Shown here: positions 12,342 to 22,750 of the stretch, piece by piece | Layout: every line of letters begins with the position of its first letter | Position numbering within the stretch: the first letter of the stretch is position 1 | From: Cyanobacteriota bacterium | GTDB lineage: Bacteria > Cyanobacteriota > Vampirovibrionia > JBFMGH01 | DNA length: 64,000 bases | Direction of reading: 5' to 3' | NCBI GenBank assembly: GCA_040752795.1 | Contig: JBFMGH010000608.1 | Span: 22,209 to 86,208, forward strand | Position numbers and translations under genes: made by a program | Notes under the pieces: generated by a model | The model's input: the letters and a program-made list of their open reading frames with translations, nothing else | Databases searched by the model: none | What the model was told of the DNA's origin: nothing

Positions 12342-13485
12342 CTATAAGTTTTCCTTTTTCTACTTTAAAGACATCAATATCATCAAACCACTTATCCTTA
12401 AAAGAGTCTAAATCTGTTGTGGTTATTATTGTTTGATTCTCAAAGCCTATACTTTCAAACAAAAATTCTTGTCTTGATAAATCTAATTCAGCCAAAACAT
12501 CATCTAAAAGCAGTATGGGTTCTTCTTTTAAAGAGTTTTTTATTAATTCAAGCTCTGATAATTTAAGTGAAAGAACTATGGTTCTTTGCTGTCCCTGAGA
12601 AGCAAAAGTATTTGCTTCTTTTTCTTCAATATAAAAACATATGTCATCTCTATGTGGGCCAACAAGTATCTGTCCTTTTAATATTTCTTCTTCTGTTTTT
12701 TCTTCTATTTTAAGACTATAGCTTTCTTTTATCCTTTCAATTGGTGGTAATTCATCAAGATGACACAAGAAATTATATCCTACAGTACTATTATAACTAA
12801 CGGTTAAATCATCTTTAGTTCCAGAGATCTGCAAATTTTTCTCTCTGGCAAAAGGAACCACTTCTTTTAAAAACTTCTCTCTTAAATAAATAACATTGCT
12901 TCCTGCCGTAGAAAGTTGATCATTCCAGGATTCTAGCATATTTAACTGAACTGAACTTAAATTAGTAGCATGACCATTAAAAGATTTAATCAAAGCTAGT
13001 TTTTGCTGTCTGATCTTATTAAAAATATTTAACCTGCTATAATAATTAGGGTATAACTGACAAATTGCTGTATCAATCCATTTTCTTCGGTCTTTAGGTG
13101 ACCCTCTAAGTAATAACAAATCGTCAACAGAAAAGCTAACAACCACAAATTTTCCTAAAAAGTCATTAAAAGAGCTCTTTTTTACTTTGTTAACTTTTAA
13201 AAGTTTCTGTTTTCCAGGGTTTATTGCAACACTTAAATCCAGAAAAACATTATCTGTTTTTTCTACAAGACCGGAGACAAAAGCATTCTCACTTCCCCAT
13301 CTAACATACTCTGAATCTGATGAAGCTCTTGATGAATCAAGTGTGGCTAAAAAACAAATAGCTTCCACTAAATTAGTTTTACCCTGTGCATTACCACCGA
13401 CTAAAACTGTTTTATTTTTATTAAACTGAACCTCAAGATTTTCATAATTTCGAAAATTTATTAACTTTAAAGATTTCAGAAACAT
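12334..13485 (-). CDS. recF: DNA replication and repair protein RecF
   Basis: 383 aa. It has the Walker A GGNAQGKTNLVEA, an SMC-like signature region and a Walker B (ILLLDDVLAELD), and lies downstream of dnaN. Confidence 0.9.
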   Translation of the reverse strand: MFLKSLKLINFRNYENLEVQFNKNKTVLVGGNAQGKTNLVEAICFLATLDSSRASSDSEYVRWGSENAFVSGLVEKTDNVFLDLSVAINPGKQKLLKVNKVKKSSFNDFLGKFVVVSFSVDDLLLLRGSPKDRRKWIDTAICQLYPNYYSRLNIFNKIRQQKLALIKSFNGHATNLSSVQLNMLESWNDQLSTAGSNVIYLREKFLKEVVPFAREKNLQISGTKDDLTVSYNSTVGYNFLCHLDELPPIERIKESYSLKIEEKTEEEILKGQILVGPHRDDICFYIEEKEANTFASQGQQRTIVLSLKLSELELIKNSLKEEPILLLDDVLAELDLSRQEFLFESIGFENQTIITTTDLDSFKDKWFDDIDVFKVEKGKLIDG

Positions 13486-13617: not shown

Positions 13618-14730
13618 TTACTTAACCTGAACAGGCATTATCAAGCAGAGATACCCTTCGTCCTCATCTGTTTTTAACAATGCAGGCGCTAAGCTTCCGC
13701 CAAACTCCATTCTAACATCATGAGATTCTATAACTTGCAGCGCTTCTACTAAAAACTTATAATTGAATGCTATTTTTAAGCCACCTTCTTTAAAATCAAC
13801 TTCCATTACATCAGAAGCATCTCCCATATCTGGTGTATTAGCGCTTAAATTTAGCTTATGTTTTTCAAAATCAAGTTTTACAATATTTGTTCTTTCATTG
13901 GCCATAACAGAAGTACGTCTTATAGAAGAAACAAGATCTTCTCTATTTGCTCTTACTATTGTTTCGTAATTAGCCGGGATTAGCTTTGGATAATCAGGAT
14001 ATCTTCCTTCTAGCAATCTAGATAACAGATATCTATCTGTAAGCCTAAAAGATATTTGACCTTCTGAAATTCCTATATAAAGCTCTTCATAGCTACCTGA
14101 ACTTGAAATTCTCAATAATTCATCTAAGATTCTTGTTGGTACAACTACAGAAAACTCTTTTTCTAAAGTGTTAGGTAGTTTTGTTTGTTTTCTGGCTAAC
14201 CTGTTACCATCAGTTGCTGCCACTTCAATCTCGTCATTTTTTATACTTAAATATACTCCGCTTAACACGTTATTTGATTCAAAGCTTGCAGCTGCAAATT
14301 TTGTTTGTCTTATAGACTTTAAGTATAATTCTAGCTCTATTTTGAACTCTTCTTTTTCTTGTATCCTGGTTATTTTAGGAAATTCATCTGCGCTTATGCC
14401 CATTATTTCAAATTTTGCTTGTGCGGAATTAATTTTGGCTATCATTTTTTCAGTATTAATATCAAATGAAACACTTTCTCCTGATAAATTTGTTGCAATT
14501 TCTATCAGTTTTTTTGCCTGTAGTGTTATTTGCCCTTCTTCTGTTACCGTTGCCGGTATTATTGCTTCAACCGATATATCAAGATCTGTTGCAACAAGTT
14601 TTAAGCTTTTTGAATCTATTGCATCTATTAAGATATTTGCTAATATTGGTTGAATTCCTCTGGAGGTTGTAGCTTTAGATACAGCGTTTAAAGCGTTTAA
14701 CAAGTTTTCTTTTTGAACTACAAATTGCAT
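13618..14730 (-). CDS. dnaN: DNA polymerase III beta sliding clamp
   Basis: 370 aa with a three-domain clamp architecture. The start is MQFVVQKENLLNALNAVSKA and the end is LIMPVQVK. It is directly upstream of recF. Confidence 0.9.
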   Translation of the reverse strand: MQFVVQKENLLNALNAVSKATTSRGIQPILANILIDAIDSKSLKLVATDLDISVEAIIPATVTEEGQITLQAKKLIEIATNLSGESVSFDINTEKMIAKINSAQAKFEIMGISADEFPKITRIQEKEEFKIELELYLKSIRQTKFAAASFESNNVLSGVYLSIKNDEIEVAATDGNRLARKQTKLPNTLEKEFSVVVPTRILDELLRISSSGSYEELYIGISEGQISFRLTDRYLLSRLLEGRYPDYPKLIPANYETIVRANREDLVSSIRRTSVMANERTNIVKLDFEKHKLNLSANTPDMGDASDVMEVDFKEGGLKIAFNYKFLVEALQVIESHDVRMEFGGSLAPALLKTDEDEGYLCLIMPVQVK

Positions 14731-14879
14731 TTTCCCCTCTCCTTAATTAGGTTCTTCTCAATATCATACCTCAACATTCAGATATGTTACACAGAAAAAA
14801 TTACTCAATTTCATTTTATATTACATGAATTACTCTAATAAATATATTAAATATTTAATTAGTTACAGTAGTAACCTCA

Positions 14880-15056
14880 ATTTTTTGTAGAAAACTGGTT
14901 TAAAGTTAATGATAGCTTAAAAAATAAATGTTCAAAAACTGTCAAAAAAGTGTATAAAATTAAAAAAGTTTTCTACAGGGGACTTTTTTTCTACAGCATG
15001 GTTTGACAGTCATGCAGGGCTTTTTAACATGTTTTCTACAGGTTTTCTACATGTGG
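14880..15056. promoter_or_regulatory. Cluster of four direct and one inverted copy of GTTTTCTACA(G) in the dnaN leader, candidate divergent DnaA boxes (oriC)
   Basis: Direct copies lie at about 14969, 14988, 15031 and 15044. The inverted copy TGTAGAAAAC lies at about 14887. The motif matches the DnaA box TTATCCACA at 7 of 9 positions. An AT-rich stretch at 14800-14880 is adjacent. Confidence 0.4.
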
Positions 15057-15581
15057 TTACATGCTTTTCTCTGTACGAACAACCTCTAATTAGCATTCTG
15101 GTTTGTTCTTTGGTTTTTATTTCTCCTTAATTATCTTTTGAGCATGTTTTCTGAGATATAATTAGAAGACTTAAATGCTATCTCATGATTTAAGAGTTGT
15201 AACCACCATGCAAAAACATTTCTTCCATGATTTATTTAAAAGTTGAACATGGGATTTTCTTTATTGCACATGTTGATACAATATCTTGATCATGCGAAAA
15301 CCATGTCTGACATGTGTTTTGACTATACAACATTTACGTTAATAATATTATAACATACTCAATATTTTGTTGTATACATGAAGTCTTTAGATCTTTTTAT
15401 GTTGCTTGAAAGGATCAGGTTTTAATTGTTTAGAACGTTTAAAAATCTTTCTGATTGTTTCTTTATCTTAAATAACTCAGTTTTAGAAGCTGCAGGTAGT
15501 TGTTTTATTGTCGTTCATCTAAATAAAACAGAAAGAACATTACGTTCTTTCTGTTTGTATCTTAATAAGTGTATATAAAAA

Positions 15582-16541
15582 TTATTCTATAAAAGCTCCC
15601 ATTTTTCTGAATTTTTCATATCGGCTTGATTTTAAGGTTTCTTTAGAAAGTCCATCAAGTTCTTCTAAAGCATTTACAATTGTATTCAGCATGTTTTTTG
15701 CTGTATATTCAGGGTCATTATGAGCTCCACCTGTTGGTTCTTTTATGATTCCATCGATAATGCCCAGTCTTAACAAATCCTCAGCTGTTAGTTTTAGGGC
15801 TTCTGCTGCATCGGAAGCCTTTTCAGCGCTTCTGAATAATATTGAGGCACAGCCTTCAGGTGATATTACGGTGTAATAGGCATGTTCTAAAAGATAAACT
15901 TTATTGGCTACAGCCAACCCTAAAGCACCTCCTGAGCAGCCTTCGCCTGATATTATTGATACAAATGGAACAGTTAAATTGGCCATTTCTCTGAGGTTAA
16001 AGGCTATAGCTTCACCCTGTCCGGTCTCTTCTGCTTTTATACCAGGGTATGCTCCAGGTGTATCAATAATAGTAACTATAGGCATTCCAAATTTATTTGC
16101 GTGATAAAAAAGTCTTAATGCTTTTCTATAGCCTTCTGGTTGTGGCATGCCAAAGTTGTGTTCCAGGTTTTCTCTTGTACTATTGCCTTTTTGTGTTCCT
16201 ATAAGCATTATAGATCTTCCGTTAAGCTGGGCTATGCCGCCTATAATAGCTCTGTCGTCTGAGCCATGCCTGTCCCCGTGTAATTCTACAAAGGTGTCTG
16301 TTATAAGGCTAACATATTGCTTAAAAGTGGGTCTTTTTTGATGCCTGGAGATTTGAACTCTTTGGGAAGGCTTCAAGTTAGTGTATAAATCTGTTTTAAA
16401 AGTTTCAGCCTGCTTTCTTAATACAGATATTTGATCCTCTAGATCTATACCTGTTTCAGCACTCAGAGATTTTAGTTCTTCAATTTTTGTTTCAATTGTA
16501 TGTATGGGTCTTTCAAACTCTAAAGGAGTTGCATTTTTCAT
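15582..16541 (-). CDS. accA: Acetyl-CoA carboxylase carboxyltransferase subunit alpha
   Basis: 319 aa. The carboxyltransferase alpha fold is evident (RHQKRPTFKQY, GAYPGIKAEETGQGEAIA), and it lies immediately downstream of accD. Confidence 0.9.
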   Translation of the reverse strand: MKNATPLEFERPIHTIETKIEELKSLSAETGIDLEDQISVLRKQAETFKTDLYTNLKPSQRVQISRHQKRPTFKQYVSLITDTFVELHGDRHGSDDRAIIGGIAQLNGRSIMLIGTQKGNSTRENLEHNFGMPQPEGYRKALRLFYHANKFGMPIVTIIDTPGAYPGIKAEETGQGEAIAFNLREMANLTVPFVSIISGEGCSGGALGLAVANKVYLLEHAYYTVISPEGCASILFRSAEKASDAAEALKLTAEDLLRLGIIDGIIKEPTGGAHNDPEYTAKNMLNTIVNALEELDGLSKETLKSSRYEKFRKMGAFIE

Positions 16542-16544
16542 TGT

Positions 16545-17459
16545 TTAATTACCTGCCATTGTTTCTACTTTTTTCTTTTGAGGGTATATTTTTTCTGGGC
16601 TATGTAGGTTAAGAAGAGTATAAAGAGTTTCTTTTAAATCTTTTCTGTGACTGATCATATCTACTTGACCAAATTTAAAAAGATATTGAGCTGTTTGGAA
16701 GTCAGAAGGCAGCTTTTGTCGTATAGTTTGTTCTATTACTCTTCTTCCGGCAAATCCAATTCTGGCATCTTTTTCTGCTATTAGAATATCACCAAGTGTT
16801 CCATAGCTTGCTGTAACCCCACCAAAGGTTGGTTCTGCGAGAATAGATATATAAAGAAGTTTTTCTTCATGCATTCTGGCAAGTGCACAACTTGTTTTTG
16901 CCATTTGCATTAAGCTTAGAATTCCTTCTTGCATCCTTGCACCACCAGTTGAGGTTATAGTAATAAGAGGGATTTTTTTCTCCAGGCAACCTTCAATAAG
17001 TCTGGTTGTTTTTTCTCCTACTACGGAACCCATGCTTCCACCCATGTAGGAAAAGTCCATGGCACCAAAACCAACCTGGTAGCCATTGATATATCCATAG
17101 CCTGTTATTATTGCTTCATTAAGCCCTGTTTTCTTGAGAGCCTCTTCCTGTCGTTCAAGGTAAGGCATTGTGTCATGGAAATCCAGGGGATTGGATGGTT
17201 TTATATGAGCATTGATTTCTTCAAAAGTGTTTTCGTCTAAGAGATGATAAATTCTTTCTTTTGCGCCAATACGAAAGTGATAGTCGCAGAAGGGACAAAC
17301 AAAGATGTTCTTTTTAAGTTCTTTTGTTAGAATGCTTTTCTCGCAATAGTTGCATTTCTTCCACAGTTTTTTGACTTCTTTGTCTGTGAGAGGTATATCA
17401 CCTAGTTTTATTTCATTTTTACTTTTTTTTCTATTTGCGAACCAGTCTGTTAAGGTCAT
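16545..17459 (-). CDS. accD: Acetyl-CoA carboxylase carboxyltransferase subunit beta with N-terminal Zn ribbon
   Basis: 304 aa. It has the CNYCEKS...CPFCDYH zinc ribbon followed by the carboxyltransferase beta domain (GGSMGSVVGEK, GGARMQEG). Confidence 0.9.
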   Translation of the reverse strand: MTLTDWFANRKKSKNEIKLGDIPLTDKEVKKLWKKCNYCEKSILTKELKKNIFVCPFCDYHFRIGAKERIYHLLDENTFEEINAHIKPSNPLDFHDTMPYLERQEEALKKTGLNEAIITGYGYINGYQVGFGAMDFSYMGGSMGSVVGEKTTRLIEGCLEKKIPLITITSTGGARMQEGILSLMQMAKTSCALARMHEEKLLYISILAEPTFGGVTASYGTLGDILIAEKDARIGFAGRRVIEQTIRQKLPSDFQTAQYLFKFGQVDMISHRKDLKETLYTLLNLHSPEKIYPQKKKVETMAGN

Positions 17460-17476
17460 AATGATATATTATACTC

Positions 17477-19384
17477 CTATTTTAGCTCTACATCAGGATT
17501 TAATATTTTCATTTTATCGAAATTAAAGGCGGATCGGCCTGACCCTAAGAAGAGATCTATGCCAAACAAAGATCTTTTTCTTGAAATATCGTAACCTATA
17601 CGAAATTTAAAATCTTCAGGGCCTACTCTAGCATAAAATTGGTTTTCCGTCATAAGTCTTGGTTCGGGTCCGTTTTTAGAAAGATTCATGCTTCTTATGT
17701 TACCGATGCTAAGATATTTGCAAATCTTAAAATCACCAGCCAATAATAAATTGCTTGTGCCACGTATAAATTCATCAAAGACAAAAGGAGTATGCCCCCA
17801 TATTCCTGCTTGAAAGTAGGAAGTGTTTAGAGAAAGTCTCCAGAGGTTCCAGTCAATTCTTGGTCCGCCTCTTAAAATTGTATAAGTATTACCTGTTCCA
17901 TAGGCGGCAAAATTAACCTGTGTTTGAAGGCGTAGTTTAATATAGTCTTTCAGGCTTAAAATAGGCTCATCACTCATTAAATTTGCCTGAACCTGTACTC
18001 TTGGTGTTGTTATACCATAGTCTACATCCCTTGCTATTCCCCCGGATATTCTTGTTGAGAGGGTATGTTTTAATGCTGTAACGACTTTTCTCTCATCAAC
18101 GAGTTCAGCAAGATAGAGTGGTCTATAAAAACCCATTCCCATAAAGCCTGTTTCAGGGTACTCATTGACATAGTATTTTATTTTGGTTGTATCTCTGAAT
18201 ATTTTCTGTTCACCTTTAACAACCAGCCTGTCTGCTGTTGATGTGTAACCGATATCAGTGTTATTTATAGGGGATCTGAAGCGTGCTATTCCGCCACCAC
18301 CTACTACGTGTTTTCTTCCGGCGGCAGAGAATACCGGGGAAATTCTCAACATAGAGTTTTTAGGTAGGTCTAGTGTAAGGCTTGGGCCGAAGTATATGCC
18401 AGCAATATTTTTATCAAAACCTACTTCAGGTAGCATCGCTTCTACAATTTTAGATTCATCACCTATTGTAAGAGTCATTCTTGGGAGTCTTGCCAGCTTA
18501 AATCTGCCAATATAAATTTTTGCATCTTTTACAATAAGATTTTGAGTTTTCTTTGCTCTGTCTAGTTCAATTTCTCTTGCTACAATCTTATATTTAGGAG
18601 GTTTGTTTTGGGGGTTGGCTGGTATAACCGTTCTGTATCCAGGCATGTTTTTTTTGATTTCTTCCGGTTTATAGACGCCAGCGGTAAGAGAAAGGTCAAG
18701 TTTTTCTTGCTCAAGGATAGCAGCCCCGTCATTTAATTCTATGAGTTCAGGATACAACACTGCCTCTTTTGCTTCCATTCTTACTCTCTCTATGACAGTG
18801 TTTGGATTGTTTATGAGAGCAGATTCTTTATCAAGCTCAACACGAGCGTAATCACCGTTTATAACCTTGTCATCTTTTGTTATTTGAAGATTGCCTTCTG
18901 CTGTTATATATTCTCCAGATTGGTAATAAATGACCTTATTTGCAGTTAGTATTGCATTTTGTCCTTCTACTACTACTTTTGCGTTTCCTGTTGCTACAAA
19001 CATATCCTGATCCTGAATATATTCGAGCTTATCGCTATCTACTTTTATAACGACTGCACTTGCAGATAAGGTTTTATTTTCTTTCTCTTCTTCGTCTTTC
19101 TTTGTTGATTTCTTGTGTTTTGTTTTTTTCTTTTTTTGGTGATCTGTTTTAAGTTCTTTTTCTGGGGGGATTTCTTCTTTTATTTCTATTTCTTCCTGCC
19201 CTGATTCTGTTGGTTCTATTTTTGGTGCTTCGTTATCAGTCAGAGATTCGTTTTTAGTTCCTTCAGAAAGATAGTCTAATACAGGTAGATCTGTCTTTGT
19301 TTGAGCAAATATTTGATTGGTGAGAAATAAAAATGTTAATAAGCTTATAATTAAGATACTTTTGTTTTTTGTTTTTAAGTTCAT
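17477..19384 (-). CDS. OstA/LptD-like outer-membrane protein
   Basis: 635 aa. It has a signal peptide (MNLKTKNKSILIISLLTFLFLTNQIFAQT), a K/E-rich linker and an OstA-N-like beta-jellyroll (VVIKVDSDKLEYIQDQDMFVATGNAKVVVEGQNAILTANKVIYY). The large C-terminal region is beta-rich. Confidence 0.55.
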   Translation of the reverse strand: MNLKTKNKSILIISLLTFLFLTNQIFAQTKTDLPVLDYLSEGTKNESLTDNEAPKIEPTESGQEEIEIKEEIPPEKELKTDHQKKKKTKHKKSTKKDEEEKENKTLSASAVVIKVDSDKLEYIQDQDMFVATGNAKVVVEGQNAILTANKVIYYQSGEYITAEGNLQITKDDKVINGDYARVELDKESALINNPNTVIERVRMEAKEAVLYPELIELNDGAAILEQEKLDLSLTAGVYKPEEIKKNMPGYRTVIPANPQNKPPKYKIVAREIELDRAKKTQNLIVKDAKIYIGRFKLARLPRMTLTIGDESKIVEAMLPEVGFDKNIAGIYFGPSLTLDLPKNSMLRISPVFSAAGRKHVVGGGGIARFRSPINNTDIGYTSTADRLVVKGEQKIFRDTTKIKYYVNEYPETGFMGMGFYRPLYLAELVDERKVVTALKHTLSTRISGGIARDVDYGITTPRVQVQANLMSDEPILSLKDYIKLRLQTQVNFAAYGTGNTYTILRGGPRIDWNLWRLSLNTSYFQAGIWGHTPFVFDEFIRGTSNLLLAGDFKICKYLSIGNIRSMNLSKNGPEPRLMTENQFYARVGPEDFKFRIGYDISRKRSLFGIDLFLGSGRSAFNFDKMKILNPDVELK

Positions 19385-19528
19385 GTTTATTCTGCTTATA
19401 CCTTATTGTTTCGCTATGATTGTTTTTCTTACATTTGTGCTTCTCAGTTTTGTGTAGTATATCACATTTAATAGAAGCAATTTGCATTGTATAGTTTATA
19501 AAATAAAGTTTTATTAATAATTACAGAG

Positions 19529-20713
19529 TTATCTTATGTATCCCATAGGGTTAGTGTGTTTACCGTTTATTCTGACTTCAAAGTGTAAATGTGGACCAGT
19601 AGAGTAGCCAGTGCTTCCCTCATAACCTATTACACTTCCTTTTGACACTTTTTGACCTTTGCTTACGTTAATAGATGACAGGTGAGCGTATAATGTTGTT
19701 ATGGATTTGCCATGGTCTACAATAACAACTTTTCCATAACCACCATACCAACCTGTATAGATAACATTGCCACCGTTAGCAGACTTAATAGGAGATCTGT
19801 TTTTTCCAGCAATGTCTACTCCAGTATGAAACTTTCTTGATTTAAATATAGGGTGTCTTCTCCATCCATATGGAGAAGAAATAGCACCATAAACCGGCCT
19901 GATAAAGGCCCCTGTCGCATAGGAGATTGTGTTACTGGTTGTTGCAGTTAAGGCTCGAATCTGATTTTCTATATCATTAGAGGCCCTTGCTAGCTCTCTT
20001 TCAGCAGACTCGTAAGAGAGTCTGTCAGTTTTTAGCTTTGTTACTAGTTCTTTATTTGCGTTTATTGCAATAGATATTTCTTTTTTCTGGCTGTCTATTC
20101 TATTTATTGTTGAAATAATTTGTTCTTTCTGTTCCCGCAGGTTTTGTCTGATTAATACTAATTCCCTTGTTTTTTCTTTTAGTTTATCAAGAACCTCTTT
20201 GTCTCTTTGAATCATTCTTTGTTGATAATAGAGATTATCTATAAATGTTGTTATATCCTTAGCTCCTAATATCATATGTAATAGGCTAAGGTGTTCACCT
20301 TTATAGATTTGTCGGATTCTTTTAGCTGCTTCGGCCTTTAATTTTAGCTGATCGTTATTTAGTTTTACAAGGCTAGACTCCAGGTTATCCAGCTGGTTTT
20401 TGGCAAGAGTTAGTCTGTATTGCTGATCCCTAAGAGATGTTGTGGCATAATCAAGACGATGCTGGTTTGATAATAGTTCTTGTCTGGCCTTATGCTCTTT
20501 TTGCTGGATAAGTTGTTTCTTTTGCTTTATTTGAAGAATTCTTTTGTTTATATTTTGTTTGTTTCTAATATATTCTTCAACACGTTTATTTTTGCTGGCA
20601 GCTGAAACTACAGGTGTTTCTATGAAAATAAAACAACAATAACAGGTTATAACAGCCAATAGAGTCCATACCTTAACAGGAGCAGGTATTTTACCAAATA
20701 GTTTAAATAGCAT
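19529..20713 (-). CDS. M23/LytM family peptidase with N-terminal coiled coil (EnvC/NlpD-like)
   Basis: 394 aa. A signal anchor is followed by a long coiled coil and a C-terminal LytM domain with intact HTGVDIAG and HLHFEV metal ligands. Confidence 0.8.
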   Translation of the reverse strand: MLFKLFGKIPAPVKVWTLLAVITCYCCFIFIETPVVSAASKNKRVEEYIRNKQNINKRILQIKQKKQLIQQKEHKARQELLSNQHRLDYATTSLRDQQYRLTLAKNQLDNLESSLVKLNNDQLKLKAEAAKRIRQIYKGEHLSLLHMILGAKDITTFIDNLYYQQRMIQRDKEVLDKLKEKTRELVLIRQNLREQKEQIISTINRIDSQKKEISIAINANKELVTKLKTDRLSYESAERELARASNDIENQIRALTATTSNTISYATGAFIRPVYGAISSPYGWRRHPIFKSRKFHTGVDIAGKNRSPIKSANGGNVIYTGWYGGYGKVVIVDHGKSITTLYAHLSSINVSKGQKVSKGSVIGYEGSTGYSTGPHLHFEVRINGKHTNPMGYIR

Positions 20714-20730
20714 TTACTTATATTAATCCT

Positions 20731-20835
20731 TTATCTGAAAAGCAAAGGAAGTAACATTGCACTAACTGTCCACAGAATAAATGAAAGAGCTATTATTGCA
20801 ACAATAATTTTGCTATTTTTGCGTAAAAATTCCAT
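20731..20835 (-). CDS. Unlisted 34-aa single-TM small protein immediately upstream of the M23 peptidase gene
   Basis: Hand-translated from the minus strand as MEFLRKNSKIIVAIIALSFILWTVSAMLLPLLFR*. An AGGT lies 8 nt upstream of the ATG. The stop is 17 nt before the M23 start. It is below the 60-aa cutoff of the ORF track. Confidence 0.3.
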   Translation of the reverse strand: MEFLRKNSKIIVAIIALSFILWTVSAMLLPLLFR

Positions 20836-21097
20836 AGATTTTACCTATATGAAATTTCATTTGTCACTACAATTTCTTTATATTTTACCCTACATTTACC
20901 ATAATGAAAATTAATTGTTGAGTTTAATGAAATAGAAGTCTTTGAAGTTTTATAGGAAGTAGATTTAGCCCTGTTTTGAAATGTAAATTTAATTTATGAA
21001 TAAAAAAAGTTTGATCATGTTCAAAACATGTTCAAAACTTATTGCCAAAATGTAATCTTCTTTGTTTGTCGGGGTTTTTGTTTGTCGAAAAGTTCTG

Positions 21098-22165
21098 TCA
21101 AAAAATTTTAAAATTATTTTTAGGCCATATAACAGAATGAATTTTGCCTTTAATAAATTTTTTATCAACTTCAGACCATATTCTACTATCCTGGCAGGCA
21201 TTTCTATTATCTCCTAGTACGTAGTAGTAGTTTCTTGAGATAGTTTTTTCTTCACAATGTCTGGCCATCGTGCAAATAATATTGTTATCAGGTTCTTTTA
21301 TATATTTTTCTTCAATTTTTGTTTTGTTTAAGAGAATTCCTTTTTCTCTGTTTATTTCTATTGTATCGCCATTTTTAGCCAATAGTCTTCTTATATAGAC
21401 TAAATCGTTGTTTTTTATATCTTTAAAGAGGGTCTTAAATGGTAAATCGATTTGTCCGGGCCTTATAGGAGATTCCAGGTAAAGCAGGTCATCTTTTTGT
21501 GGTTTTTTAACCAGGCCAGATATTTTATCTACGACTACAAGGTTTCTTGAAAGAAGAGTGGGGCTCATATCTTTGTTAGAAACTAAAACAAAATCAACTA
21601 TTTCAAGACGCAAAGGAATAAAAGAGATATAAATAAGGGGATTAAGAACGATAAGAAAGAATATAAAGAGAGACAATAATAAGTTACTGCTTTTAATGTA
21701 GTCTTTATTTATTATAGACGCAAGTTTTTTTTTAATAATATAAAAAGAAGCAATTGTGCAGACAAAAGAAAAAACAACAAAAAGTAATCCTGTGTAGATG
21801 TTAAAAGTTAATGTGACAAATAGCCCAATAAATAAGCTTATCACTATTATATTTGCAGGCATAAATACGAGAAGACTACTTATAACGGTTGTTTCTTTCC
21901 TTGTTATATTGTTTGTTTTCTCCTTTGAATATGCGACTTTTAAAGCTAGTCCGCAGAAAATGTTATACAGCATGCCTATTGATGAGGAAAATAAAAATAA
22001 TAGAAAGATTTCTAGCCAGGAAATGTTTGAATAAATGTTGAAGACCTTACTTGTGGAGAGTAATATTGCATAGAAAATGGGTAGGCCAATAATGCAAAGA
22101 AAACAATGATAGCTTGAGCCTTTAAAAGTAAGGTTATTTATAAGTTTTTCTGTGTTGCTGGCCAT
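21098..22165 (-). CDS. lepB: Signal peptidase I (S26) with unusually long polytopic N-terminal extension
   Basis: 355 aa. The C-terminal half has S26 motifs (DMSPTL catalytic Ser region, KRLLAKNGDTI, GDNRNACQDSRIWS). The N-terminal half, about 170 aa, contains 5-6 TM helices. Confidence 0.75.
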   Translation of the reverse strand: MASNTEKLINNLTFKGSSYHCFLCIIGLPIFYAILLSTSKVFNIYSNISWLEIFLLFLFSSSIGMLYNIFCGLALKVAYSKEKTNNITRKETTVISSLLVFMPANIIVISLFIGLFVTLTFNIYTGLLFVVFSFVCTIASFYIIKKKLASIINKDYIKSSNLLLSLFIFFLIVLNPLIYISFIPLRLEIVDFVLVSNKDMSPTLLSRNLVVVDKISGLVKKPQKDDLLYLESPIRPGQIDLPFKTLFKDIKNNDLVYIRRLLAKNGDTIEINREKGILLNKTKIEEKYIKEPDNNIICTMARHCEEKTISRNYYYVLGDNRNACQDSRIWSEVDKKFIKGKIHSVIWPKNNFKIF

Positions 22166-22644
22166 CTACCCTTTAATTTTTTACTTACTTACTATTCATT
22201 TAGCTTAAGATATATTACTACAAATTAACTTGTGTTAATAATCTGGCATTGAGACACATATATTTCCTACGGAAATTTTTTAATATCAGTTTTTTCAGCC
22301 ATTATTTAAAAATAATAAGCAAAATACAGCCGTTTCAATAATTATTAATATTTAATTTTCTTAAGCTTAATGATATATAATAACTTTACATTTGAAACTT
22401 TTTAATAGATAATTAACTGCGAAAAATTTAATAACCTAAAACTTAGCCCTGACTGTATTAGAAAAGCTTTTGTATCACTCTTAAATTTTAAGTTATATAA
22501 AAAAGATAATAAAAATAAATACCTTAAATATGTTGTGATATAAAGACCTGCTGAAAAATGTAACTGATTTTACTTATTATGAAAAAGAAATGCCATGTTT
22601 GTATTGACAATGCACTCATGGGTAGTTAAAATAAAAAGTAGTAT

Positions 22645-22716
22645 TGGGGCGTGGCCAAGCGGTAAGGCAGCTGGTTTTGGTCCAGCCATTCAGAGGTTCG
22701 AATCCTTTCGCCCCAG
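22645..22716 (+). tRNA. tRNA-Gln (anticodon TTG)
   Basis: 72-nt cloverleaf. The acceptor arm is TGGGGCG/CGCCCCA, the D-arm is GCC-AAGCGGTAA-GGC, and the anticodon stem GCTGG/CCAGC carries loop TTTTGGT. The T-arm is AGAGG-TTCGAAT-CCTTT. It closely resembles E. coli tRNA-Gln. No CCA is encoded. Confidence 0.85.
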
Positions 22717-22750
22717 TATCTTTTTTTATCTAGAGAGGAAGTTGGAAGAA

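Follow-up and report, generated by a model that had tools for sequence, protein, structure and literature searches.

A predicted chromosomal replication origin upstream of dnaN, with a helically phased CATG array, in a non-photosynthetic member of the Cyanobacteriota

We analysed the intergenic spacer between dnaN and accA in a 64,000-nucleotide stretch of DNA (hereafter the window) from a Cyanobacteriota metagenome-assembled genome (MAG), a spacer that a first-pass annotation of the sequence had put forward as a candidate replication origin. Read toward dnaN, the spacer holds the terminator-like hairpin of accA, a distal promoter-like element, an array of CATG tetranucleotides, an inverted repeat, and four strong and then three weak repeats resembling DnaA boxes; beyond the weak boxes follow another strong box, a short spacer, a run of DnaA-trio-like triplets, an AT-rich stretch, a proximal promoter-like site, and the ribosome-binding site (Table 1). 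The GC-skew switch, the phylogenetic footprint, and a predicted unwinding module agree with the earlier proposal, and we conclude that the spacer is very probably the chromosomal oriC of a Melainabacteria-type member of the Cyanobacteriota. For comparison we collected the dnaN-upstream regions of 12 further relatives, from one genome scan and 11 protein-identity look-ups, and aligned nine spacers whose DnaN identities run from 86% to 51% (alignment A2). A metagenome scan for the tandem box TGTAGAAAACYTGTAGAAAAC returned 31 loci, among them seven more dnaN-linked low-GC relatives, several short low-GC fragments without dnaN, and high-GC loci in unrelated contexts (glycosyl hydrolase, TonB, citrate synthase, and TnpB-like).

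Plain GC skew is negative over approximately the first 15 kb, stays around zero between 15 and 20 kb, and is positive from there on, and the cumulative minimum of the whole sequence is broad (15-20 kb). Because this leaves the position of the switch ambiguous, we computed the skew at third codon positions (GC3) for each of 53 non-overlapping open reading frames (ORFs), which separates the effect of gene strand from that of replication. Regardless of strand, this skew is below zero in every one of the 10 genes left of 14730 (-0.12 to -0.35) and above zero in each of the 43 right of 15582 (+0.01 to +0.61); the sign changes between dnaN (-0.12) and accA (+0.29). The minus-strand genes at 15.6-22.2 kb (n = 5) have GC3 skews of +0.16 to +0.48 and thus share the skew of the right replichore. 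A two-term fit, with gene strand and side of the breakpoint as terms, left a residual sum of squares of 46 with the breakpoint in the spacer, 182 with it near 22 kb, and 374 with no breakpoint. A switch located elsewhere, for example at 22.2-22.6 kb or outside the window, together with a lack of DnaA binding, had been set beforehand as the outcome that would count against an origin at dnaN; within the window, we found the switch at the spacer. Under the usual rule of a G-rich leading strand, a negative-to-positive change on the plus strand has the polarity of an origin. The homologous spacer shows the same sign switch in six syntenic relatives (L001, L003, L004, L005, L006, and L009); the switch is roughly present in two Vampirovibrio-type loci (L010 and L012), and L007 has a shift without a clean change of sign.

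The repeats consist of five exact copies of the 9-mer TTTTCTACA within 166 bp (14886-15051), four on the plus and one on the minus strand, so that at least three 9-mers with no more than two mismatches to a DnaA box lie in a single intergenic region. In the whole window this 9-mer occurs nine times against 1.84 expected, a count reached in 0 of 100 shuffles; five of the nine copies are in the spacer, and no further box cluster was found in the 64 kb. The first-pass annotation had described five copies of a 10-mer, four direct and one inverted. Its count and orientations stand, but one copy is inexact: GTTTTCTACA is found at 14886-14895 (minus) and at 14968-14977, 15031-15040, and 15042-15051 (plus), while the fifth copy, TTTTTCTACA (14986-14995, plus), matches it at nine of ten positions, with T for G at the first base. 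On recomputation, the reported match to the E. coli box TTATCCACA was again seven of nine, with mismatches at positions 3 and 6, though the relevant reference is the cyanobacterial box TTTTCCACA, which TTTTCTACA matches at eight of nine. Across 12 loci, the 45 instances of TTTTCNACA divide into 36 TTTTCTACA and 9 TTTTCGACA, so that position 6 is T in 36, G in nine, and C in none; both flanks prefer G. Since the exact TTTTCCACA is not what these loci carry, we file the element as a variant, and judging from its sequence TTTTC(T/G)ACA is a lineage form of the cyanobacterial box. The strong array points away from dnaN, ends in a tandem pair 11 bp apart, and stands back-to-back with the one strong and three weak boxes that point toward dnaN. 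The weak-box region falls in a block conserved in A2 (GACAnnTTTTTAAACAnnTTTTGAACA), with position weight matrix (PWM) matches of 6.9 and 7.6 bits, and its three boxes may also bind DnaA.

The first-pass annotation had also reported a stretch of about 60 bp above 85% AT, which we recovered beside the boxes (Table 1); the interval 14800-14880 as a whole is 82.7% AT. This stretch flanks the box cluster, and the least stable 40-mer of the spacer starts within it at 14818 (dG -36.5, against a 99th percentile of -39.5 for the window), with the duplex-stability minimum adjoining a trio element. After the box AAAAATTGAGG, the window reads TTA CTA CTG TAA CTA ATT. The basal unwinding system, whose definition we take from Pelliciari et al. 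2021 (PMC8287927), has three parts. A DnaA box comes first, then a spacer of up to 16 nt, usually closed by a GC cluster of about 4 bp, and then a minimum of three 3'-NAN-5' trios, whose consensus 3'-GAT-5' reads 5'-CTA-3' on the box strand. In the window, three consecutive 3'-NAN-5' trios (3'-AAT GAT GAC-5') of the correct polarity start 11 nt from the box, inside the 16-bp limit. In A2, the trio element shows period-3 conservation (CTn/Cnn/CTn).

A tested cyanobacterial example allows a direct comparison. The supplement of PMC8287927 gives the module of Synechococcus elongatus PCC 7942 as AAAAGGTGT AAAAGGTGT CGGG GATGATGATGAC, written 3' to 5', which on the box strand is TTTTCCACA TTTTCCACA GCCC CTACTACTACTG (CTA CTA CTA CTG), and its main text reports that S. 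elongatus DnaA unwinds the cognate scaffold. Relatives of the window carry CTACTACTACTG as a string identical to that of the tested module, and most close relatives have two plus two trios, broken at position 3 (Table 1). The AT-rich stretch occupies the very position that a module of box, GC cluster, and DnaA-trios predicts for it. The earlier suggestion that this stretch is the unwinding site thus fits the sequence, in which it adjoins the trios after the dnaN-proximal box; we infer that unwinding would start at approximately 14860-14810, and the module is the strongest mechanistic evidence for an origin. We also considered whether the opposite box array has an unwinding module of its own beyond it, and rejected this, since neither a GC cluster nor trios follow the tandem pair.

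Most of the spacer has diverged in A2, with short blocks conserved at near-fixed distances from the start of dnaN. More than 15 related dnaN-upstream regions, with DnaN identities as low as 43-51%, retain the boxes, their spacing, and their inverted arrangement. Box spacings of 11, 74, and 83 bp are identical in the window and L001, and the 11-bp and 74-bp spacings of the tandem pair and the 14969 box recur in other relatives. Of the 12 compared loci, 11 keep the box nearest the predicted DNA unwinding element (DUE) at the same position, in the form TTTTCTACA or TTTTCGACA; L011 has TTTTATACA there instead. Other positions vary: the 14987-14995 box (TTTTTCTACA) is specific to the window, its clade having CTGTTTA- or CTGTCGA-type sequence there, and the number of strong boxes ranges from one to five among close relatives. 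Relatives also show degenerate boxes on the same 11-bp grid, and L008 has five exact copies in succession. The arrangement is retained in five loci (L008, L010, L011, L012, and L044) without accA upstream, where the neighbour is instead a transposase, an ankyrin protein, DAHP synthase, or proA; because it survives this change of upstream gene, the element travels with dnaN. The seven dnaN-linked loci from the metagenome scan have the arrangement too. In L011 the proB- and proA-like genes are fragmented.

Public labels seem wrong for three of these sequences, all of which bear melainabacterial or Vampirovibrio-type dnaN loci and origins: L001 (CAZFBA010000005.1) is labelled 'uncultured Gammaproteobacteria', L011 (JALMRX010000095.1) 'Ignavibacteriales', and the DnaN of L012 'Oculatellaceae cyanobacterium'. 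Among the high-GC loci of the tandem-box scan, L032 (Ga0209426_1001155, 51% GC) has 13 copies of TGTAGAAAA/TTTTCTACA in 386 bp (710-1095), several of which fall on a 21-bp grid; a GH5-like glycosyl hydrolase lies downstream of them, and neither dnaN nor dnaA is nearby. The 21-mer tandem also occurs on other high-GC contigs in unrelated contexts.

Pfam scans, run on 53 of the 57 ORFs that reach 120 aa (of the other four, three overlap longer scanned ORFs), and tblastn with an E. coli DnaA query, validated at 252 bits on Pfam Bac_DnaA, agree with the first-pass annotation that accA, and not dnaA, lies upstream of dnaN. The same annotation called this architecture atypical, a description that holds against the proteobacterial and firmicute norm but not for the Cyanobacteriota, in which a dnaN-linked oriC with a distant dnaA is the rule. 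Cyanobacterial oriC adjoins dnaN, with dnaA encoded separately and TTTTCCACA as the box, and the S. elongatus origin has been mapped experimentally near dnaN, at the GC-skew shift point (PMC4674748, PMC7198777). Given a host in the Cyanobacteriota, the absence of an adjacent dnaA is therefore normal, and the spacer has the expected place directly beside dnaN. Our literature search, within a limited library, found nothing on a melainabacterial or Vampirovibrio oriC.

In addition to the boxes, the spacer is densely populated by CATG. We counted 16 sites against approximately two expected, and CATG is the only one of the 16 palindromic 4-mers that is enriched (P 9e-10). Fifteen sites fall within 500 bp, the next densest 500-bp interval of the 64 kb having six. 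Ten low-GC loci show the same pattern, with 7-29 sites against 1-4 expected (P 1e-2 to 7e-15) and CATG as the sole enriched palindromic 4-mer in each. Site positions are conserved as well: distances of -263, -254, -221, -159, -136, -95, -12, and -2 from the first box are kept in the clade of the window, and some recur in L008 and L011 while the intervening sequence diverges. One palindrome of the methylation type is thus both over-represented and positionally conserved. Moreover, the sites show helical phasing, for which the best period is 10.5 bp in the window (R = 0.87, P < 0.001) and 10.4-10.6 bp in its clade (R 0.81-0.94); P is at most 0.005 in eight of the ten CATG-type loci.

Conversely, the two Vampirovibrio-type loci (L010 and L012, approximately 50% GC) keep the TTTTCTACA boxes and have zero and one CATG, respectively, but 21 and 16 GATC against approximately 2.5 expected. 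GATC is the sole enriched palindromic 4-mer in their spacers (L010, 5346-6000; L012, 5489-6000), and GATCTGTAGAAAAC in L010 occupies the place of CATGTAGAAAAC in the window; phasing of these GATC arrays is not significant. Outside the spacers, CATG and GATC are near or mildly below Markov expectation. CATG is known from the literature as an N6-methyladenine (m6A) target of NlaIII-type enzymes, and a review lists Thermoplasma CATG enzymes among archaeal orphan methyltransferases. An orphan Dam-like enzyme that methylates GATC is widespread in cyanobacteria, and Synechocystis and Anabaena require it (PMC6105098). Our search of a limited library found no CATG clusters at origins. Separately, in L010 a gene for a DNA methyltransferase of the N6_N4_Mtase family starts 5.8 kb downstream of dnaN (12907-13125) and is cut by the end of the locus. 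CATG as a degenerate DnaA box was considered and rejected, as relatives with identical strong boxes use GATC.

Because the motif switches while the DnaA boxes stay unchanged, its reader should not be domain IV of DnaA, which favours a cluster of methylation sites. By analogy to the GATC cluster of E. coli oriC, we tentatively interpret the CATG array as such a cluster, with somewhat less than even confidence, and the comparison suggests that it replaces the GATC clusters of homologous Vampirovibrio-type origins. A fuller scheme, in which an orphan CATG-specific adenine methyltransferase and a reader of hemimethylated CATG control firing, would amount to a circuit of the Dam/SeqA type that arose, or changed its specificity, outside the Proteobacteria; this is possible but doubtful. 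A serious competing explanation of the array, and of the array only, which we also place a little short of even, is that the sites are bound directly by some origin protein or act as phased, flexible CA/TG steps that aid wrapping. This would account for the 10.4-10.6 bp phasing in eight of ten CATG-type loci, which puts all sites on one face of the helix, and it is in keeping with the lack of significant phasing in the GATC arrays and with the window, in which the Pfam scans found no DNA methyltransferase gene. It does not account for the clean switch between two palindromic N-A-T-N motifs, CATG in ten loci and GATC in two, both known m6A targets, while the DnaA box is constant and orphan GATC methylation is widespread in cyanobacteria (PMC6105098); a pure role in bendability would not predict replacement by GATC.

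We hypothesize the following sequence of events at the spacer. DnaA, encoded elsewhere in the genome, would bind the lineage boxes (G-TTTTC(T/G)ACA-G) in two back-to-back sets, one at 14969-15051 directed away from dnaN and one at 14886-14959 directed toward it. From the dnaN-proximal box, a DnaA-ATP filament would cross the short spacer onto the trios and melt the adjoining AT-rich stretch, where helicase would be loaded, presumably with the DciA encoded two genes downstream of dnaN. Forks leaving in both directions would give rise to the GC-skew sign switch at the spacer. The CATG array upstream of the boxes would most likely provide adenine-methylation sites read after initiation, like GATC in E. 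coli, and this is the least certain step of the scheme.

Several observations weigh against assigning the origin to this spacer or against parts of that scheme. Five genes from accA to lepB would run head-on to the fork, which is unusual beside an origin; no clear skew switch is present at dnaN in the distant relatives L008 and L011, and left of the site the skew data extend over no more than 15 kb. The window and its close relatives have a third trio that does not conform (TAA, TGA, or CAA), and the window reaches three trios only if TTA is counted, at an 11-nt spacer. Canonical TTTTCCACA accounts for none of the 45 box instances, and binding of T or G at position 6 by the DnaA of this lineage is only a prediction. 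We detected no dnaA in the 64 kb by the Pfam scans or by tblastn, nor in any of 43 related loci by tblastn, and no dnaA turned up in the 31 loci of the TGTAGAAAACYTGTAGAAAAC scan, which was aimed at a second box cluster linked to that gene. Some cyanobacteria replicate without DnaA (PMC7198777), and the spacer origin would be DnaA-dependent only by inference from its sequence.

Two promoter-like sites facing dnaN bear on a different function for the repeats. The distal element lies approximately 620 bp upstream of dnaN, facing the boxes and the gene; its TGnTATAAT is conserved in seven of nine aligned loci together with approximately 25 nt downstream, and it could drive transcription through the origin or produce a long dnaN leader. 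The proximal site coincides with a block conserved in A2 (TTTGTAAC...TGTTGAnGTATGAT) and is a predicted promoter. In other bacteria, dnaA-dnaN operons are known to be controlled through DnaA boxes, and boxes lying between the two sites could block or tune transcription, so that the repeats might be operators for dnaN only, bound by DnaA or another regulator, with the origin elsewhere. We consider this reading, an operator role having been the alternative named in the first-pass annotation, very unlikely, as it leaves unexplained both the GC3 sign switch at the spacer in the window and six relatives and a module laid out identically to the tested cyanobacterial one, and the 64 kb contain no other box cluster. 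Because the two promoter-like sites bracket the boxes, a dual role of the same boxes as operator and origin is plausible.

It is highly improbable that the spacer is an origin whose 9-mer some non-DnaA initiator recognises, as in the DnaA-independent replication proposed for some cyanobacteria. Such an origin would fit the failure to find dnaA in the 64 kb or the 43 loci, the departure of box position 6 (T/G, never C) from every DnaA-box consensus cited here, and reports of cyanobacteria that lack DnaA or can do without it (PMC7198777, PMC6105098). On the other hand, the 9-mer agrees with the cyanobacterial DnaA box at eight of nine positions, head-to-tail boxes 11 bp apart, arrays set back-to-back, and a trio module together form a DnaA-type signature, and absence from 64 kb is uninformative for a megabase-size genome. 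Hardly credible is an origin in the divergent lepB/tRNA-Gln spacer at 22.2-22.6 kb, with the boxes upstream of dnaN as a titration or regulatory site: that spacer is AT-rich, would make all neighbouring genes co-directional with replication, and is compatible with a broad cumulative-skew minimum at 15-20 kb, but the five genes at 15.6-22.2 kb are GC3-positive though on the minus strand, the fit there is four times worse (182 against 46), and TTTTCTACA is absent between 15051 and 30798 even with one mismatch to the 10-mer allowed.

Table 1. Sequence features of the predicted origin region and trio elements of related loci (positions refer to the window).
Feature	Position	Strand	Description
dnaN	13618-14730	minus	DNA polymerase III beta clamp; 3/3 Pfam DNA_pol3_beta domains, E 1e-27 to 1e-34; predicted origin precedes it
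dnaN-accA spacer	14731-15581		851 bp, non-coding
Proximal dnaN promoter-like site	14763-14790	minus	GTAACA-16-TATGAT, from promoter scan; then Shine-Dalgarno GGAGAGGGG
AT-rich stretch, predicted DUE	14808-14867		88.3% AT; top 0.15% of 60-bp windows in 64 kb
DnaA-trio-like element	14857-14874	plus	TTA CTA CTG TAA CTA ATT in dnaN orientation; plus strand carries 3'-AAT GAT GAC ATT GAT TAA-5'
DUE-proximal strong DnaA box	14886-14894	minus	TTTTCTACA, exact; points toward trios, AT-rich stretch, and dnaN
Weak box	14929-14937	minus	TTTTGAACA; degenerate, 11-bp period
Weak box	14940-14948	minus	TTTTTGACA; degenerate, 11-bp period
Weak box	14951-14959	minus	TTTTATACA; degenerate, 11-bp period
Four strong boxes	14969-14977, 14987-14995, 15032-15040, 15043-15051	plus	Opposite orientation; PWM 15.9-18.9 bits; last two are the tandem pair
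CATG array, 14 sites	14997-15314		Starts at 14997, 15011, 15028, 15050, 15060, 15143, 15184, 15207, 15226, 15248, 15269, 15291, 15302, 15311
Further CATG	14824 and 15377		
Inverted repeat	15077-15108		GAACAA(C/G)C ... G(G/C)TTTGTTC; conserved
Distal promoter-like element	15347-15376	minus	-35 TATACA, 18 nt, extended -10 TGTTATAAT; best promoter score in region, 10/12 with TG
accA terminator-like hairpin	15526-15556	minus	13-bp perfect stem, 5-nt loop; outer limit of origin region
accA	15582-16541	minus	Pfam ACCA, E 2e-137; first gene of other replichore, head-on to predicted rightward fork
Trios in L008, L024, L039			TTTTCTACA, 14 nt ending CCC, then CTA CTA CTA CTG; four conforming trios
Trios in L016			CTA CTA CTA CTA after 14-nt spacer; four conforming trios
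Trios in L011			CTA CTA CTA CTT ATT after 14-nt spacer; five conforming trios
Trios in L044 (Gastranaerophilales) and close relatives of the window			CTA CTA nnA CTA ATT after 14 nt ending CCC

The DnaN of the window is 100% identical to a DnaN annotated 'MAG: Cyanobacteriota bacterium', and remoter relatives are labelled Melainabacteria, Gastranaerophilales, and Vampirovibrio; the host is a non-photosynthetic, Melainabacteria-type MAG of the Cyanobacteriota with low GC. On the 3' side of dnaN lie recF, a DciA-family gene, and gyrB, and upstream of accA, all on the minus strand, accD, a conserved 635-aa protein, an M23 peptidase, and lepB. The head-on order of the five genes from accA to lepB (15582-22165) is kept in all close relatives, in which the 635-aa protein (17477-19384, minus, between accD and the peptidase), itself without a significant Pfam domain, is likewise syntenic at 600-674 aa. 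Near the lepB/tRNA-Gln spacer, the program-made ORF of ribosomal protein L25 (22595-23365) crosses the tRNA-Gln(TTG) gene (22644-22717), and its real start is probably the ATG at about 22753. We rejected an iteron-type plasmid or mobile origin, given the housekeeping synteny (accA, accD, dnaN, recF, dciA, gyrB) and the lack of a Rep, integrase, or partition gene.

Within the spacer, we found no ORF above 50 aa and no Rfam family at the gathering threshold, nor at E <= 1 beyond noise. A reading of the spacer as an RNA or small-protein gene was rejected on these grounds, as its conservation consists only of short motifs at fixed spacing. One of these is the inverted repeat, which in A2 is the block AGAACAAAGC-N17-GCTTGTTCA, conserved in eight of nine loci; in the window both of its sides are altered (ACC...GGT against AGC...GCT). 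Of three copies of a GAACAAGC-like motif, two form the inverted repeat approximately 23 bp apart and the third lies inside the weak box TTTTGAACA at 14929-14937.

Hardly any member of the non-photosynthetic sister group of cyanobacteria has been cultured, and the analysis provides for this group a sequence-level origin map that shows the boxes, the unwinding module, the promoters, and the spacing. S. elongatus has both the dnaN-linked, dnaA-unlinked origin and the module of box and trios, so these two features probably predate the split between oxygenic cyanobacteria and Melainabacteria. In practical terms, TTTTC(T/G)ACA should join the motifs of origin-finding tools, which now search TTTTCCACA in the Cyanobacteriota, and the site can anchor coverage-based growth-rate estimates (peak-to-trough ratio) for these MAGs in gut and groundwater metagenomes. 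The origin assignment itself will not surprise a specialist; the replacement of CATG by GATC is the part that could matter. It amounts to a clean natural experiment on the use of short methylation-type motifs at origins and, if the methylation interpretation is true, an origin can have its methylation motif swapped wholesale while its DnaA boxes stay fixed.

Among known systems, E. coli oriC combines a DnaA-oligomerisation region with a cluster of Dam GATC sites read by SeqA. The spacer resembles it in that its boxes form two back-to-back sets, which include weak boxes 11 bp apart, a DUE lies at one end, and one palindromic tetranucleotide is over-represented approximately 10- to 20-fold at conserved positions. 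It differs in that the tetranucleotide is CATG and not GATC, shows strict helical phasing, and falls for the most part outside the boxes and DUE, and in that the neighbouring gene is dnaN, not gidA/mioC. To our knowledge SeqA is confined to gammaproteobacteria, and we identified no SeqA, Dam, or IHF site here, a reader having been sought only through the Pfam annotation of the window. The Cori of Caulobacter, with CcrM GANTC sites and CtrA sites, offers a second parallel, namely cell-cycle control by a methylation motif other than GATC together with a second regulator. This parallel is conceptual only, as motif, proteins, and lineage all differ. CtrA is mentioned in PMC10225481.

The closest likeness is to cyanobacterial oriC, as described for Synechococcus elongatus PCC 7942, Cyanothece 51142, and Anabaena PCC 7120, which is also intergenic and directly upstream of dnaN without an adjacent dnaA, and has a cluster of TTTTCCACA-family 9-mers, a GC-skew shift, and an AT-rich stretch (PMC4674748, PMC7198777, PMC8287927). 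The unwinding module of box, GC cluster, and CTA CTA CTA CTG trios is shared as well. In terms of the basal unwinding system (Richardson/Murray; Pelliciari et al. 2021), the common elements are a 5'-TTTTCTACA-3' box, a spacer of up to 16 nt, 5'-CTA-3' repeats, and AT-rich DNA, whereas the clade of the window has a non-conforming third trio and the window itself has GAGG instead of CCCC in its spacer, with no recognisable second box there. In S. elongatus two perfect boxes abut and are accompanied by a GC cluster of 4 nt, in contrast to one strong box and a 14-nt spacer here; the boxes here are TTTTC(T/G)ACA and never TTTTCCACA, and upstream of them stand a phased CATG array of approximately 260 bp and a conserved distal promoter-like element. 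By the features compared, the spacer would belong to the class of cyanobacterial dnaN-linked oriC with a basal unwinding system, from whose described members it departs in two respects: T or G, never C, at position 6 of the box, and the phased CATG array.

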